From NCBI GenBank assembly GCA_949294555.1, contig CASFHP010000004.1, positions 31,635-95,634 on the forward strand: DNA of 64,000 nt, given 5' to 3'. Below the pieces are notes generated by a model. That model made no database searches, was not told where the DNA came from, and worked only from the letters and a program-made list of their open reading frames with translations. Made by a program: the position numbers and the translations under genes. Source of the stretch: an uncultured Eubacteriales bacterium (GTDB taxonomy: Bacteria > Bacillota > Clostridia > TANB77 > CAG-508). Shown here in pieces: positions 15,672 to 60,894 of this stretch (position 1 is its first letter; every line of letters starts with the position of its first letter).

Positions 15672-15942
15672 AAAAAATTTGTTACAATTAACAGTTTAAA
15701 TATCAAGTAAAATCAGAAACCAGTAATATATAAATATTTTATTCATTAAATGGCTAACATTACAGAATAAACAAATTATAATCTTATCAAGTGTAAAATC
15801 GCTGGCGTACCGCGACTTTTCCACTTGATAAGATAACAATTTGTAATATTCTTCCATTTGCACATTTAATTTCATAAAATATTTATATATTACTGGTTTC
15901 TGATTGTTTTAGAAATCGAATGTTAATTGTAACAAATTTTTT
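15672..15942 (+). repeat. Giant nested hairpin, copy A (149-nt conserved core 15734-15882 inside unique perfect arms)
   Basis: 15672-15693 pairs 22/22 with 15921-15942, and 15711-15740 pairs 30/30 with 15876-15905. The core is 146/149 identical to 24822-24970. Confidence 0.85.
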
Positions 15943-15958
15943 CTCCAAGTTCTTAGGA

Positions 15959-23434: not shown

Positions 23435-24166
23435 ATGAGCAGAAAAAGTAAGATAAAAATATTGAGAATACTATTAGCAATCATTGCTGTTGCAATTATA
23501 ATAGGGGTTATCATTTATTTGGTACCAGTTATGAAAAATTTAAGCACAGTCGAAGGGCAAGAAGCATTTAGAAATAAAGTAAATGATTCTGGATTTATTG
23601 GATTACTTATGTTATTTGGTTTACAAGTAGCACAAATATTTTTAATTATATTACCAGGAGAACCGATAGAAATATTAGCAGGTATGTGTTATGGAGGCTG
23701 GGGAGGCTTATTGTTTATAACTGTATCTGTATGTATTCTTACAACAGCTATATTCTTTATGGTTAGAAAATTGGGAAGAAGATTTGTTTATGATATTTGT
23801 GATGAAGAAAAAGTAAAGAAAATTGAAAATAGTAAACTATTTAAAAATCCTAAAAAAATTGAATGGATAATGATTATATTATTTATGATACCAGGAACGC
23901 CAAAAGATTTATTAGTATATATTGCAGGCTTATTACCAATAAAACCATTAAGATTTATCTTAATATCAACATTTGCAAGATTACCATCAGTTGTATCCTC
24001 AACATTTGCAGGAAATACGTTAATGAAAGGAGATTGGCAATCCAGTTTAGTTATATATGCTATCACATTTATACTAGTTGGAATTATCGTATTTATTGCT
24101 AACAAATTTGATAAAAGTAAAACAACCGAAGAAGCATTAAAATCCATACAAAAAGATATAAAATAG
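23435..24166 (+). CDS. TVP38/TMEM64 (DedA-related) family membrane protein
   Basis: 243 aa and multi-TM, with LPGEPIEILAGM and the later IPGTPKDLLVYIAG repeat typical of this family. Confidence 0.8.
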   Translation: MSRKSKIKILRILLAIIAVAIIIGVIIYLVPVMKNLSTVEGQEAFRNKVNDSGFIGLLMLFGLQVAQIFLIILPGEPIEILAGMCYGGWGGLLFITVSVCILTTAIFFMVRKLGRRFVYDICDEEKVKKIENSKLFKNPKKIEWIMIILFMIPGTPKDLLVYIAGLLPIKPLRFILISTFARLPSVVSSTFAGNTLMKGDWQSSLVIYAITFILVGIIVFIANKFDKSKTTEEALKSIQKDIK

Positions 24167-24191
24167 AAAGAAAGGAAATAAGGGGAAATAT

Positions 24192-24740
24192 ATGAATGAA
24201 GTATTAACATCTAAAACTACGAAAGATAAAATAATAGAATATATAATATATTTTTTCATATATTCTTTTATAGGATGGTTGATAGAAACCATTTATGCTT
24301 TATTTGTACATGGTTATTTTGTAAAAAGAGGATTTCTATTTGGACCAATTTGTCCAATTTATGGCTTTGGAGCAGTATTACTATTATTAGCAACAAAAAA
24401 ACTATACAAAAAGCCGTTTTTGAAATTTTTAATTGCAACCATTGCTTTTACCTTATTTGAATATATGGTTTCTTTTATATTAGAAATGTTATTTGGATTA
24501 AGATGGTGGGATTACTCAAATGACTTTTTAAATATCCAAGGAAGAGTTAGTTTATTATACTCTATATTTTGGGGTGTTATCGGACTAATATTATTAGAAA
24601 AATTACACCCATACATACAAGATAAAATACAGAAAATAACCAAAGGAAACACAAATAATATTCAGAAAATTGTTTGTTTGGTTCTTGTTATTATATTAAT
24701 AGTAGATACTGTTTTTTCAGTGCTAAAATATCTACATTAA
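24192..24740 (+). CDS. PF06541-type (CmpB-like, putative ABC-transporter type IV) membrane protein, paralogue 1
   Basis: Motifs YSFIGWLIETIY, FLFGPICPIYGFGAV and RWWDYS are present. Confidence 0.75.
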   Translation: MNEVLTSKTTKDKIIEYIIYFFIYSFIGWLIETIYALFVHGYFVKRGFLFGPICPIYGFGAVLLLLATKKLYKKPFLKFLIATIAFTLFEYMVSFILEMLFGLRWWDYSNDFLNIQGRVSLLYSIFWGVIGLILLEKLHPYIQDKIQKITKGNTNNIQKIVCLVLVIILIVDTVFSVLKYLH

Positions 24741-24745
24741 TTTAT

Positions 24746-25047
24746 GTCCAATTGGGGACGTTTCTTTTTGAGACATTTTTATGTTAATATTAGTTTCTTA
24801 AATAATAAATAATGTATATCATATTTTATTCATTAAATGGCTATCATTACAAAATAAACAAATTATAATCTTATCAAGTGTAAAATCGCTGGCGCACCGC
24901 GACTTTTCCACTTGATAAGATAACAATTTGTAATATTCTTCCATTTGCACATTTAATTTCATAAAATATGATATACATTATTTATAGTTAGTAGCTTGAT
25001 ATGTTAACATAAAAATGTCTCGAAAAGAAACGTCTCTAATTGGACAA
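24746..25047 (+). repeat. Giant nested hairpin, copy B (core 24822-24970)
   Basis: 24746-24788 pairs with 25005-25047 over 43 positions; the 3 non-Watson-Crick pairs are all G:U in the + sense. The inner stem 24806-24828 pairs 23/23 with 24964-24986. Confidence 0.85.
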
Positions 25048-25114
25048 TTTAATTTTTCTTAAGAATTTATTCAAATAAATTTAAGAAACCCTAAAAGTAT
25101 TATTAAGATTTGCA

Positions 25115-25142
25115 TGATATATTAAAATTACAAAAATGTAAT
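25115..25142 (+). promoter_or_regulatory. Extended -10 promoter (TGATATATT) plus the TTACA-N4-TGTAA palindrome
   Basis: A paralogous block is found at 23314-23342, and further ATGTAA repeats lie downstream. Confidence 0.4.
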
Positions 25143-25213
25143 AGAAATGTAAGACAAAACAATTTGAACAAAGTAAGATGTCGTGTAAAATGATAATATA
25201 AGGGGTGGAGCAA

Positions 25214-25858
25214 ATGAAAAAAGAAAAATGGATAAATGAATGGATAAAATTATTCTGGGTATTCATTATTGGAAGTTTAATTGGATATGTTGTAGAAATG
25301 ATTGTAGGTTTAGTTCAAAATGGGCATTTTGTTTCAAGACAGGGACTACTATTTGGACCATTTGCACAAGTCTATGGATTAGGAATTTTGGCATATTATT
25401 TGATTGTTCCAAAAATTAAAGGTGGCTATGTAAAAATCTTTTTTGTCACAATGATATTAGGTGGCACTGTAGAATACTTATGTTCTTATTTTCAAGAGTT
25501 ATTATTTGGAACAATATCATGGGATTATTCTCACTTATGGTTTAATATAAATGGTAGGACAAGTTTATTGCATTGTACATATTGGGGAATAGGAGGCGTA
25601 TTGTTTATGAAATATGTATTGCCTATCATCAATCACATAGATAAAATTATTAAAAATCAATATTTTAGAACTATAACTGCATTATTTGCAATATTTATGA
25701 TATTTAACATATCTGTATCTTCAATGGCGGCTATTAGACAGGATGAAAGAAATCGTCAAATTGCTGCTTCAAATAATATTGATGTGTTTTTTGATAAATA
25801 TTATTCTGATGAAGTTATGGACACGATATACGAAAATAAAATAGAAGTGAAAAAATAG
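25214..25858 (+). CDS. PF06541-type membrane protein, paralogue 2
   Basis: Motifs IGSLIGYVVEMI, LLFGPFAQVYGLG and SWDYS are present. ATG 25214 sits behind an AAGGGGTGGAG SD. Confidence 0.75.
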   Translation: MKKEKWINEWIKLFWVFIIGSLIGYVVEMIVGLVQNGHFVSRQGLLFGPFAQVYGLGILAYYLIVPKIKGGYVKIFFVTMILGGTVEYLCSYFQELLFGTISWDYSHLWFNINGRTSLLHCTYWGIGGVLFMKYVLPIINHIDKIIKNQYFRTITALFAIFMIFNISVSSMAAIRQDERNRQIAASNNIDVFFDKYYSDEVMDTIYENKIEVKK

Positions 25859-39424: not shown

Positions 39425-39931
39425 ATGAGTGAAAACAAATGTCAATGTGGCAATCCCAAAAAGGATGAATTCATGCAGAAATTGTTTGAAGAATATTTGC
39501 CTATAAAAGATAATTTAATTCAAATGTTAAACGAAGTACAAGAGCATTATGGATATATTCCACAAAATGCACAAAAAGAACTTTCAGAATTTTTAAATAT
39601 TCCAATGGCAGAAATTTACGGAGTCATAACGTTTTATTCGAGATTTACCCTAAAACCTAAAGGAAAATATAATGTTTCAGTATGCTTGGGAACAGCATGT
39701 TATGTAAAAGGTTCTCAAAAAATTATGGATAGATTAAAAGAAAGATTACAAATCGAACCAGGCGAAACGACAAAAGATGGTCTATTTTCTATTGAAGAAA
39801 CAAGATGTGTCGGAGCGTGTGGTTTAGCACCAGTGTTTACTGTAAATGGCGAAGTATATGGAAAAGCAACTGTAAAAAAATTAGATGAAGTTTTAGACGG
39901 AATTATAAAAGAAAGTGAAAAAACAAACTAA
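39425..39931 (+). CDS. hydC: NuoE-like [2Fe-2S] subunit of a bifurcating-type [FeFe]-hydrogenase
   Basis: The thioredoxin-like ferredoxin pattern VSVCLGTACYVKG...RCVGACGLAPV is present. Confidence 0.85.
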   Translation: MSENKCQCGNPKKDEFMQKLFEEYLPIKDNLIQMLNEVQEHYGYIPQNAQKELSEFLNIPMAEIYGVITFYSRFTLKPKGKYNVSVCLGTACYVKGSQKIMDRLKERLQIEPGETTKDGLFSIEETRCVGACGLAPVFTVNGEVYGKATVKKLDEVLDGIIKESEKTN

Positions 39932-39943
39932 TTTATAAGAAAA

Positions 39944-39978
39944 GCGTGCGTTAACGAAATCAAAGATTTCGACGCACA
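39944..39978 (+). repeat. Intergenic repeat family R3 (nested hairpin)
   Basis: GCGTGCGTTAACGAAATCAAAGATTTCGACGCACA is 32/35 identical to 44788-44822. Both copies lie a few nt after a stop codon. Confidence 0.6.
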
Positions 39979-40019
39979 CATGTGAAGACTGCTTCGCAGT
40001 ACTTCACAAATATATGTAG

Positions 40020-40097
40020 CTTAACCTTGTTGCCTTGTTGTATACGGAAAAATCCACATAGGGTCAAGATAAAAGACGATTTTTCCTATACAATAGG
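40020..40097 (+). repeat. Intergenic repeat family R1
   Basis: It aligns with 26071-26136. The stems TTGTATA-C-GGAAAAATC/GATTTTTCC-TATACAA enclose the conserved loop. Confidence 0.55.
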
Positions 40098-40163
40098 AAT
40101 TTCTTATATTATAGGAAATGCAATCTCCTATAATGTAAAAAAATATAAATTAGCGCATTCTAA

Positions 40164-40206
40164 TTTACATAAAAATGTCTCGAACAGAAACGTCCCTAAT
40201 TGGACA
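40164..40206 (+). repeat. Repeat M1 (a half-palindrome identical in type to the arms of hairpin copy B)
   Basis: ACATAAAAATGTCTCGAACAGAAACGTCCCTAATTGGACA is 38/40 identical to 25008-25047. It ends 5 nt before the hydB SD. Confidence 0.6.
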
Positions 40207-40219
40207 AAAGGAGGAAAGT

Positions 40220-42079
40220 ATGAAAAGTCTAGAAGAAATTCACAAAATAAGAGAAGAAAAAAGAAAAGAGTTGGATTTAAGAGTAAATACAAAAGCAGAT
40301 ACCAGAGAGAAACATATTTTGGTATGTCATGGTACTGGTTGTACTTCTTCAAAATCACCTGAAATTTTAGAAAATTTTAGAAGAATTTTAAAAGAAAGAA
40401 ATATAACCAATGTAAGAGTTATCAAAACAGGTTGTTTTGGACTTTGTGCAAAAGGTCCAATTGTTATTATCAGACCAGAAGATACCTTTTATGCAATGGT
40501 TACACCAGAAGATTGTGAGGAAATTATTGATACCCATATTGTTAAAGGAGAAAGAGTAGAAAGATTACTTTGCAAAGATATAGATGGAACAGTTGTTAAT
40601 AGTTTAGATGAGTTAAACTTTTATAAAAAACAAAAAAGAATTGCACTTAAAAACTGTGGTGTTGTCAATCCAGAAGATATTGATGAGTACATAGCATTTG
40701 ATGGATATAAAGCATTAGAAAAAGTATTAAAAGAAATGACACAAGATGAGGTCATTGATGTTGTAAAAGAATCTGGCTTAAGAGGTAGAGGAGGCGCAGG
40801 TTTCCCTACAGGTAAGAAATGGGAACTTACCAAAGCGTCAGAAGGAGACCAAAAATACGTGGTTTGTAATGCTGATGAAGGAGACCCAGGTGCTTTCATG
40901 GATAGAAGTATCTTAGAAGGAGACCCTCATTCTGTATTAGAAGCTATGGAAATTGCAGGATATGCTATTGGAGCAAATAAAGGATATATCTATGTTAGAG
41001 CAGAATATCCAATTGCAGTTCAAAGATTAAAAATTGCCATCGAACAAGCAAGAGAATATGGACTATTGGGAGAAAACATTTTTGGAACAGACTTTAGTTT
41101 TGATATAGAAATTCGATTAGGTGCAGGAGCCTTTGTATGTGGAGAAGAAACAGCTTTGCTAGAATCTATTGAAGGAAAAAGAGGGCAACCAAGAGTAAAA
41201 CCACCATATCCAGCACAATCAGGATTATGGGGAAAACCAACTTTAATTAATAATGTTGAAACATATGCAAATATTGCCCAAATTATCCTAAAAGGTGCGA
41301 AATGGTATTCTTCAATTGGAACAGAAACATCAAAAGGAACAAAAGTATTTGCATTAGGTGGAAATGTTAATAATATTGGATTAGTAGAAGTACCAATGGG
41401 AACAACCCTAAGAGAAATTATCTATGACATTGGTGGAGGAATTCCTAATGGTAGAGAATTTAAAGCAGCACAAACAGGTGGACCTTCAGGAGGATGTATA
41501 CCTAAAGAACATCTAGATACACCGATTGACTATGAATCTCTAAAAGAAATTGGTTCTATGATGGGTTCAGGTGGATTAATTGTTATGGATGATACAAAAT
41601 GTATGGTAGCTTTAGCAAAATTCTATCTAGACTTTACAGTAAGCGAAAGTTGTGGTAAATGTACACCTTGTAGAATAGGAACAAAAAGAATGTTAGAAAT
41701 CTTAGAGAGACTATGTAATGGAGAAGGAGACGAACTAGATATCTATAAACTAGAAAAATTAGCAGCAAACATTCAAAAAGCAAGTATTTGTGGATTAGGG
41801 CAAACAGCACCAAACCCAGTTGTCAGTACTCTAAAATATTTTAGAGAAGAATTTAGACAACATGCTATCCAAAAAGAATGTCGAACACTAGAATGTAAAG
41901 CAATGGCAAAAATTACAATTAATGAAGAAAAATGTAAAGGTTGTGGCTTATGCCAAAAACATTGTCCAGTAAATGCCATAGACGGTTCTGGAAGAGACAA
42001 AAGAATTATCAACCAAGAAAAATGTATTAAATGTGGTACATGTATTGCAAGTTGTCCATTCCATGCAATAGGCAATTAG
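40220..42079 (+). CDS. hydB: NuoF-like NAD(H)/FMN-binding subunit of the [FeFe]-hydrogenase
   Basis: The start is set at ATG 40220 (SD AAAGGAGGAAAG). It has a thioredoxin-like N-domain, GLRGRGGAGFPTGKKW, CGKCTPCR and two C-terminal CxxCxxCxxxCP ferredoxin motifs. Confidence 0.88.
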   Translation: MKSLEEIHKIREEKRKELDLRVNTKADTREKHILVCHGTGCTSSKSPEILENFRRILKERNITNVRVIKTGCFGLCAKGPIVIIRPEDTFYAMVTPEDCEEIIDTHIVKGERVERLLCKDIDGTVVNSLDELNFYKKQKRIALKNCGVVNPEDIDEYIAFDGYKALEKVLKEMTQDEVIDVVKESGLRGRGGAGFPTGKKWELTKASEGDQKYVVCNADEGDPGAFMDRSILEGDPHSVLEAMEIAGYAIGANKGYIYVRAEYPIAVQRLKIAIEQAREYGLLGENIFGTDFSFDIEIRLGAGAFVCGEETALLESIEGKRGQPRVKPPYPAQSGLWGKPTLINNVETYANIAQIILKGAKWYSSIGTETSKGTKVFALGGNVNNIGLVEVPMGTTLREIIYDIGGGIPNGREFKAAQTGGPSGGCIPKEHLDTPIDYESLKEIGSMMGSGGLIVMDDTKCMVALAKFYLDFTVSESCGKCTPCRIGTKRMLEILERLCNGEGDELDIYKLEKLAANIQKASICGLGQTAPNPVVSTLKYFREEFRQHAIQKECRTLECKAMAKITINEEKCKGCGLCQKHCPVNAIDGSGRDKRIINQEKCIKCGTCIASCPFHAIGN

Positions 42080-44783: not shown

Positions 44784-44787
44784 AAAA

Positions 44788-44822
44788 GCATGCATTAACG
44801 AAATCAAAGATTTTGACGCACA
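44788..44822 (+). repeat. Intergenic repeat family R3
   Basis: See 39944-39978. Confidence 0.6.
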
Positions 44823-48220: not shown

Positions 48221-48266
48221 AAAAATGGGACAGTTAGGGACAGGTCGCTAATTGTCTCATTTTTGT
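48221..48266 (+). terminator. Rho-independent terminator built from an M1-like palindrome
   Basis: 48221-48237 pairs with 48248-48264 (17 bp, two G:U in the + sense), and a T-run follows. Confidence 0.75.
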
Positions 48267-60779: not shown

Positions 60780-60894
60780 TAATTTGATGACTTTGGGGAC
60801 GGAGCAAAAAATCATCATTTATATAAAGATTTTTATAAAACTTCTTATAAAATAAATGATGATTTTTTGCTCCGTCCCCAAAGTCATCAAATTA
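60780..60894. repeat. Perfect 43-bp inverted repeat with a 29-nt loop
   Basis: 60780-60822 is the exact reverse complement of 60852-60894. The loop contains TATAAA three times. Confidence 0.9.

Follow-up and report, generated by a model that had tools for sequence, protein, structure and literature searches.

REPIN/RAYT systems have been documented mostly in Proteobacteria. In Pseudomonas fluorescens SBW25, and in the REP/BIME repeats of Escherichia coli with their TnpA_REP protein, inverted doublets of a short repeat form one hairpin, the same repeats flank a single-copy and vertically inherited Y1/HUH transposase gene, no target duplication is generated, and the elements are intergenic and often close to stop codons. 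Compensatory changes that keep the hairpin are described as common in REPINs (PMC3116915). TIRtrons/TIRYTs, as outlined in the relevant parts of two papers (PMC3733652; PMC6006769), are RAYT-like genes with long flanking inverted repeats, which have a GGGGWSAS motif in common and make up families of single and dimeric copies. Here, we analyzed a 302-nt non-coding element, named B (positions 24745-25046), in a 64,000-nt stretch of DNA from an uncultured Eubacteriales bacterium (contig CASFHP010000004.1), hereafter the window, to which all coordinates given without a locus name refer. B lies between two co-directional genes encoding CmpB-like membrane proteins and starts 4 nt past the stop codon of the upstream gene. 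It was compared, as copy W_B, with L-numbered loci (such as L004 or L102), which are stretches of related DNA from human-gut metagenome or metagenome-assembled genome (MAG) contigs. We consider it probable that B is a non-autonomous, REPIN-like mobile hairpin of the TIRtron type, which carries a second palindromic repeat as cargo.

As proposed in the original prediction, B is a nested hairpin made of three inverted repeats, which were recovered both by repeat search and by folding, with boundaries 1-2 nt away from those first proposed. The outer arms, named M1, pair over 46 nt (24745-24790/25001-25046, 91%), the inner stem that joins them to the core pairs at 25/25 positions rather than the 23/23 reported originally (24805-24829/24961-24985), and the apical hairpin has arms of 28 nt (24858-24885/24904-24931, 89%). 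Folding of the + strand gives -132.4 kcal/mol for RNA, compared with -45.5 ± 4.3 kcal/mol for shuffled sequences (z -20), and -83.9 kcal/mol for single-stranded DNA (ssDNA; z -18). For the outer-arm 43-mer and a core 50-mer, the number of matches expected by chance is 0. The left M1 arm (24745-24790, + strand) is a terminal inverted repeat with the sequence TGTCCAATTGGGGACGTTTCTTTTTGAGACATTTTTATGTTAAT, and the right arm (25001-25046, - strand) is its inverted copy, in which inverted-repeat and strain comparisons reveal three transitions creating G:T pairs, two of them polymorphic within the species. The two linkers that separate the arms from the inner stem (24791-24804 and 24986-25000) are not complementary to each other and are unpaired in the folds. 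The left one, which differs among W_B, L004, and L011, is probably what is left of an M1-doublet interior.

M1 is a dispersed repeat of human-gut Clostridia. An exact 20-mer from the M1 arm, corresponding to its first 20 nt, recovered 98 human-gut metagenome loci (L012-L109) containing 48 inverted doublets and ∼70 solo arms, many of the latter at contig ends. Total doublet lengths are nearly continuous from 64 to 426 nt, the minimal doublets (e.g. L103, 64 nt) having loops of 4 nt, and the interiors are diverse, consisting of unique unrelated sequence, of other palindromic repeats (such as the M2 family, with TTTTGGGGACGGACTC), or of relatives of the core of B. Identical cargo was found between M1 arms despite different flanks in two pairs of loci (L024 and L090; L075 and L108), and three composites of M1 and core, 295-302 nt long, occupy unrelated loci (W_B, L004, and L011). 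Identical interiors at differently flanked loci, together with these composites, suggest that the M1 arms plus their interior move as a unit. No target-site duplication was detected across the 48 doublets, and the 163 distinct M1 flanks analyzed display T/A enrichment and stop trinucleotides and no consistent target motif, as expected for Y1 transposition.

The M1 flanks have one further property. TAA, TAG, or TGA directly abuts the M1 end in 37 of the 163 flanks (e.g. L038 673 and L084 2083), 3.5 times the background of 6.6%, and in at least 16 cases this trinucleotide is the stop codon of a neighboring open reading frame (ORF) of at least 110 codons, on both sides in L066 (6455-6744). This recalls E. 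coli REPs, which are found close to stop codons, and B is positioned likewise (24738-24745).

Distant M1 pairs were searched for an autonomous element. Ordinary genes were found between them in L051, L085, L107, and L081, and a transposase gene in L102 only. There, two inverted M1 copies (45 nt, 96%) enclose an ORF of 256 amino acids (aa), which matches Pfam Y1_Tnp (E 1e-15, residues 14-123 of 256) and scores 73 bits against NCBIfam REP_Tyr_transpos, for which the curated cut-off is 80 bits. Orthologs with 80 and 70% identity are found at the same syntenic site, in the order radical-SAM gene, RAYT, radA, disA, and M1-type inverted repeats (37-45 nt, 81-96% complementary) bracket the transposase gene in three species-level orthologs, those of L102, L120, and L124. 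We call this gene single-copy in the sense of a single syntenic site in orthologous loci, not of a count per complete genome. The protein belongs to a family that is large in Clostridia metagenomes. A direct sequence search of the Protein Data Bank (PDB) with the transposase returned no match, and a profile of the transposase proteins matched only E. coli TnpArep (PDB 4ER8), with the HUH and YIxxNPVK motifs aligned. Beyond the Y1 domain there is a C-terminal extension, in which no Pfam domain was found at E<0.05. Comparison of these loci shows that the M1 arms correspond to the repeats flanking a predicted RAYT/TIRYT-type Y1/HUH transposase gene upstream of radA, which is probably of TnpA_REP subclass 2.1. 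For that subclass, automatic and manual searches found no REP-like sequences near the genes, as reported in the part of Quentin et al. (2018, PMC6006769) that deals with it; here, an abundant repeat family could be linked to a transposase of this general kind, whose gene has a conserved location next to radA. In one sister-species strain, a 165-aa Y1_Tnp (IS200-like) gene (L132 3008-3505) sits just downstream of the second CmpB gene, at the place that the flavoprotein gene has in other strains.

Between the M1 arms, B contains a core that, as originally claimed, is shared with a second hairpin of the window, copy A. Positions 15734-15882 and 24821-24969 are 98% identical over 149 nt, with weaker homology over 15724-15892 and 24810-24980. 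Copy A (15673-15943, + strand) holds this core within ends of another kind, named type-1 (GTTACAATTAACAG ... TGTTAATTGTAAC). B thereby appears modular, as had been suggested: there are M1 doublets without core (down to 64 nt), solo arms, and cores with other ends. With a 20-mer from the apical hairpin, 11 matches were obtained in two species-level MAGs labeled "uncultured Clostridia bacterium," roughly half of the matches lying at a contig end or close to one. The cores fall into a type-1 family like copy A (ends GTTACAATTCACAG...CTGTGAATTGTAAC) and an M1-bounded group like B (L004, L011, and L009), so that the shells seen are type-1 ends, M1, or M1 inside a further repeat, M3. Among the metagenome M1 doublets there are, in addition, a diverged V-type core whose apical hairpin is of another kind, a hybrid (L033), a copy with no apical hairpin (L091), and a deletion derivative (L046). 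In L095, L067, L066, L104, L083, and L033, the apical hairpin of B, termed "a," gives way to an unrelated hairpin, "b." No gene linked to type-1 ends (GTTACAATTCACAG) was found in the ∼0.65 Mb of related DNA examined. A solo left half of a type-1 element, as in copy A, is present at 33355-33430, just after the stop codon of a gene for a large repeat-containing surface protein.

The layout of the core, on the + strand, is as follows. The basal stem, S1, is formed by the 5' arm at 24805-24829 and the 3' arm at 24961-24985. It leads into an asymmetric internal loop, the 5' side of which (24830-24857) includes GGCTATCATTACA at 24839-24851 and the 3' side of which (24932-24960) includes TTCCATTTGCACATT at 24939-24953, with CATT direct repeats. 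The apical module "a" (24858-24931) has an 18-nt G+C-rich tip (CGCTGGCGCACCGCG). In a set of 15 core copies, 97.1% of the stem cells are paired, versus 38.6-51.1% when partners are slid by 1-3 columns, and 32 of 50 stem pairs have changed on both sides (17 of 21 in S1), with 0/500 shuffles performing as well. One-sided changes through G:U intermediates are almost absent, so the covariation is DNA-like. Whereas the stems vary, the internal loop is constant in B-type and diverged V-type cores, with GGCTAACATTACA on its 5' side and the CATT repeats on its 3' side. In addition, 14 of 16 independent copies have the core on the strand that is locally G-rich (binomial estimate p ∼0.002). Loop asymmetry and core orientation fit both single-strand transposition and an RNA role, and the directions of genes and replication coincide in these loci. 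IS200/IS605-type Y1 transposases are described, in the corresponding part of PMC6006769, as acting on one strand at the replication fork. The only ORF in the core is a 6-codon frame, and promoter-like hexamers are not enriched around B (19 in 24000-25800 versus 15.9 ± 4.4 in shuffles). S1 (ATAATGTATAT...) was also compared by eye with Xer/dif-like sites; this candidate was dropped, S1 being of low complexity and variable between copies.

Nesting at the apex is recurrent: M2 is found in M1 (directly inside the M1 arms in L087 and L094), M1 plus core in M3, and two alternative apical hairpins in the core. In L009, the core sits in a degenerate M1 shell, around which 58-nt M3 arms form a further layer. 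Stacking of this kind involves at least four palindromic families, and the doublets have cargo of up to several hundred bases. The M3 motif in the L009 copy (GGGGACAG) fits GGGGWSAS at 8/8 positions, and M3 may belong to a second RAYT-type gene. The hairpin at 48221-48264, which had been taken for an M1 terminator palindrome, was reassigned: it scores 12-13 against M1, which equals the shuffle maximum, and 27-29 against M3 (shuffle maximum 12-15), and alignment places it in the M3 family, together with the outer arms of L009. It lies directly after the stop codon of an upp-like gene and contains GGGACAG. The window also has a palindrome of the M2 family (TTTGGGGACGGAGC) at 60780-60894, with perfect arms of 43 nt and a loop of 29 nt. 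On a short contig of the window's species (L117 1236-1370), B has a different right linker and right M1 arm, immediately followed by an M3-like fragment and a type-1 end, an arrangement that is either a repeat cluster or a chimeric assembly.

The site occupied by B was then compared between genomes. B is present at the same place and in the same orientation in ten contigs of the window's species. In a sister species (upstream CmpB protein 90% identical), the intergenic spacer is 126 nt compared with 473 nt in the window, and 14 nt (AGGGAAATTGGATA) are found where the window has the 302 nt of B. In the next outgroup (CmpB protein 86% identical), a small ordinary hairpin takes the place of B. 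No M1-like 20-mer was found within 3.5 kb in either the sister species or the outgroup. The boundaries of the indel are the M1 termini, and B shows no target-site duplication relative to the empty allele. It is more parsimonious, judging from these alignments, that B was gained in the lineage of the window. The empty sites originally expected at the orthologous position were thus recovered in part: B is absent as a block from two species, and a palindrome consisting of M1 only was not found there. A 5-nt ATTTA on both sides of B was considered as a target duplication and rejected, the empty allele giving it no support. Within the empty allele, the sequence AAATTGG is similar to the CCAATTGG box present in each M1 end, a likeness that may hint at target choice. 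An exact-protein look-up of the downstream CmpB gene in its GTG-start version found nothing.

Other orthologous sites were compared as well. We found no M1 doublet that is empty in one genome and core-filled in its ortholog, the pairs recovered being occupied/occupied plus one absent/present pair. Two sites are occupied in both B-type-core and V-type-core species (L009 2805-3204 versus L104 2816-3106; L004 1080-1377 versus L067 5685-5971), the extra outer M3 layer of L009 having no counterpart in L104. Inversions were also noticed. In L003 (1-265; MAG BRZ_BI bin48), compared with 24745-25120 of the window, the whole of B is inverted relative to the downstream CmpB gene, on a contig that starts inside the hairpin, and in L011 (4268-4562) the core is flipped relative to the frame that M1 and the linkers form in B. 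These flips reflect either real flip-flop inversion between arms or assembly artefacts.

In the mechanism that we propose for a REPIN-like, TIRtron-type element, an M1-specific Y1 (HUH) transposase, encoded elsewhere in the genome upstream of radA, would act on B in trans. On ssDNA, the 302 nt would fold into one hairpin joining both M1 ends at its base, where cleavage and rejoining would move or copy B without target-site duplication. Everything between the M1 arms would be cargo, and pairing ability would be what selection or correction preserves. The arms would stay Watson-Crick through a constraint at the DNA level (the hairpin being needed for mobilization) and/or quasi-palindrome correction, selection on a + strand RNA being unneeded. 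Most likely, insertion or recombination between repeats would have brought the core to the apex of an M1 doublet, and the composite would then have spread to the loci where W_B, L004, and L011 are found. Several observations weigh against this proposal. There is no transposase gene within the 64-kb window, and the M1-flanked gene is known from L102, L120, and L124 only. Its NCBIfam score falls just under the cut-off, and Pfam detected no helix-turn-helix domain in its C-terminal extension. M1, which begins with TGTCCAATTGGGGACG, has a motif (GGGGACGT) that fits GGGGWSAS at 6/8 positions only, and its monomer is weakly palindromic (a stem of only 5-6 bp) and lacks GT[AG]G, hence it is no classical REP. 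The two orthologous sites occupied in both species need either long vertical persistence with concerted evolution or a strong site preference. A conserved asymmetric loop and an orientation bias are not needed for purely passive cargo. Lastly, the mobility of B is deduced from comparing sequences.

The main alternative to a mobile DNA hairpin is that B is kept mainly for a functional, structured + strand RNA, which might act as an intercistronic terminator, stabilize the mRNA or brake its translation in the manner of E. coli REPs, or be a new small RNA. The wobble pairs of the outer arms had been put forward as the sign of such selection, and that count stands: the first 43 nt of the arms contain exactly three non-Watson-Crick positions (G24754:T25037, G24756:T25035, and T24769:G25022), all G:T or T:G on the + strand. 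It does not extend to the core of B, where the + strand has three A:C mismatches that would be read as G:U on the - strand (0:3, the reverse of the 3:0 in the outer arms). B as a whole has 5 G:U on the + strand versus 3 on the - strand, all three in the core. Nor do more copies give the bias statistical support, since pooled counts are 34 (+) versus 59 (-) over 16 core-bearing elements oriented by the core, and 14 sense versus 11 antisense G:U over 18 M1 doublets between co-directional genes, 4 of the 14 coming from B. The - strand folds nearly as well as the + strand (-127.6 versus -132.4 kcal/mol). Other strains of the window's species pair in Watson-Crick fashion at two of these three sites, which makes the wobble pairs of B recent transitions, in a region of strong positive GC skew; a fourth polymorphism is C-to-T on the + strand. 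An RNA role does fit the location of B just past a stop codon between co-directional genes, the excess of stop trinucleotides at M1 ends, the location of 14/16 cores on the G-rich strand (usually the sense one), and the first 18 nt of M1, which with a T-run match a mini terminator pattern and are the only terminator-like match in a scan of 24000-25800. Replication-strand-specific Y1 transposition would, however, produce that orientation bias just as well, and the covariation proceeds almost without G:U intermediates. In Rfam, the window has 0 matches at the gathering threshold, and a scan of B at E<1 returned only hairpin models of miRNA precursors and small RNAs, far under their thresholds. 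Since B is missing at this site from two related species, it would have no conserved local role there. On balance, we find maintenance for a + strand RNA rather improbable.

The remaining alternatives concern how the hairpin was built or moved. Growth in place by hairpin-primed or fold-back DNA synthesis copying one flank would explain arms that are long and near-perfect, and stems that, though not the same in A and B, are perfect in either copy. This idea, akin to the hairpin-templated growth evoked originally, is hardly credible and was rejected, every arm layer being a dispersed repeat family: M1, S1, type-1 ends, and M3 all occur at many loci and none is a locus-specific flank, the linkers are asymmetric, and the empty site indicates a clean block insertion. 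We judge it very unlikely that B is a classical miniature inverted-repeat transposable element (MITE) derived from a DDE-type insertion sequence (IS) and mobilized via its terminal inverted repeats. B does resemble bacterial MITEs whose RNA forms long hairpins, such as Correia/NEMIS, RUP, ERIC, and EFAR, in being small (70-300 bp), non-coding, and multi-copy with long terminal inverted repeats, and it may share with them co-transcription with neighboring genes and a possible effect on mRNA stability. Those elements depend on DDE transposases and have target-site duplications, whereas none is seen at B or the 48 doublets, the ends of B match a Y1 locus, a Y1 transposase is the only such gene found between M1 repeats, and this gene, unlike an IS, is syntenic and single-site across species. 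Compatible with a mobile M1 hairpin, and bearing on its origin only, is the possibility that the core is an independent mobile element targeting the single-stranded apex of hairpin repeats, for which the loop of a minimal M1 doublet served as insertion site. Minimal doublets with 4-nt loops do exist, the core is found in three different shells and is flipped in L011 compared with W_B, and, one level up, the apical hairpin inside the core is "a," "b," or none; furthermore, ISs that insert specifically into REP palindromes are known, as noted in passages of PMC3116915 and PMC3733652. Against it, no orthologous pair of empty and core-filled M1 doublets was recovered, the core was never seen without a shell, hairpin "a" was found only inside cores (11/11 genome matches), no gene is linked to the core or to type-1 ends, and recombination between repeats could make the same chimeras. 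We therefore hold apex insertion of the core to be a tentative idea, possible but doubtful. A narrower suggestion, to which we give only a small chance, is that the core is no passive cargo but a strand-specific functional module, with variable stems, an asymmetric loop of ∼12 x 11 nt (GGCTAACATTACA opposite CATT-N-CATT) kept across diverged lineages, and an orientation bound to one strand. It could then be either a new kind of apex-inserting non-coding element, which would build Russian-doll palindromes, or a new structured RNA or ssDNA ligand of a protein.

Compared with REPIN-RAYT systems, also called REPtrons, the M1 family shares the inverted doublets that form one hairpin, the flanking of a single-copy, vertically inherited Y1/HUH gene (70-100% identical orthologs at a fixed radical-SAM/radA-disA site), the intergenic location often near stop codons without target duplication, and the compensatory changes. 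It differs in that M1 is not a self-palindromic REP of 20-40 bp with a GT[AG]G tag, in that the doublets have cargo of up to ∼340 nt and reach 426 nt compared with ∼100 nt for a typical REPIN, in the nesting of several families, and in the host, an uncultured low-G+C gut Clostridia lineage rather than a proteobacterium. Closer still are TIRtrons/TIRYTs, with which M1 shares a RAYT-like gene within long terminal inverted repeats bearing a GGGG-A-C motif, dispersed genomic families of singles and dimers, and a protein longer than classical RAYTs owing to a C-terminal extension. In TIRYTs (TnpA_REP subclass 2.1) this extension is a helix-turn-helix (Bac_DnaA_C, HTH_23, or HTH_28), whereas Pfam found none here, and GGGGWSAS is matched at 6/8 by M1 and at 8/8 by the co-resident M3. 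The abundance, cargo, and nesting seen here are not described for TIRtrons in the portions of PMC3733652 and PMC6006769 that are devoted to them. With IS1397 and ISKpn1, which land in REP palindromes, and with mosaic BIMEs, the common feature is mobile DNA inside a palindromic repeat and mosaic clusters; those ISs are protein-coding, IS3-family elements with duplications, whereas the inner element here is a non-coding palindrome and one continuous hairpin is kept. The PATEs derived from IS200/IS605 are asymmetric, bear subterminal hairpins at their ends, and insert 3' of a fixed tetra- or pentanucleotide, whereas M1 ends are mutual inverted repeats and have no fixed target.

If B is indeed a mobile DNA hairpin, REPIN/RAYT biology would extend to an uncultured low-G+C lineage of human-gut Clostridia, and a perfect-looking giant hairpin with "RNA-like" wobbles would be a by-product of mobile DNA, providing a worked example of such an artefact. 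These elements also break metagenome assemblies, as many of the retrieved contigs start or end at or inside an element, and some may flip. Such breaks and flips matter for MAG quality and for structured-RNA scans of these genomes.

The window contains other repeats. The solo M1 arm announced at 40164-40206 was confirmed at 40164-40207 (- strand, 93% identical), directly upstream of a ribosome-binding site. Some 50 nt upstream of it, a stretch of ∼170 nt (39940-40110) is found again, reverse-complemented, between the arms of an M1 doublet in L098 (68-328), and an Rfam E-value scan of 39880-40230 yielded nothing meaningful. Two copies of a small hairpin (GTGCGTTAACGAAATCAAAGATTTCGACGCAC), 92% identical, follow stop codons in the regions 39940-40110 and 44784-44822. 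A 50-nt direct repeat (98%) at 35077-35126 and 36115-36164, 1038 nt apart, encodes a UvrB-like N terminus and may represent a duplicated gene start or a paralog. Finally, within a large ORF, a tandem array with a 12-nt period (AAYACN units) at 32947-33084 specifies a repeat rich in Asn and Thr, as is typical of surface proteins.

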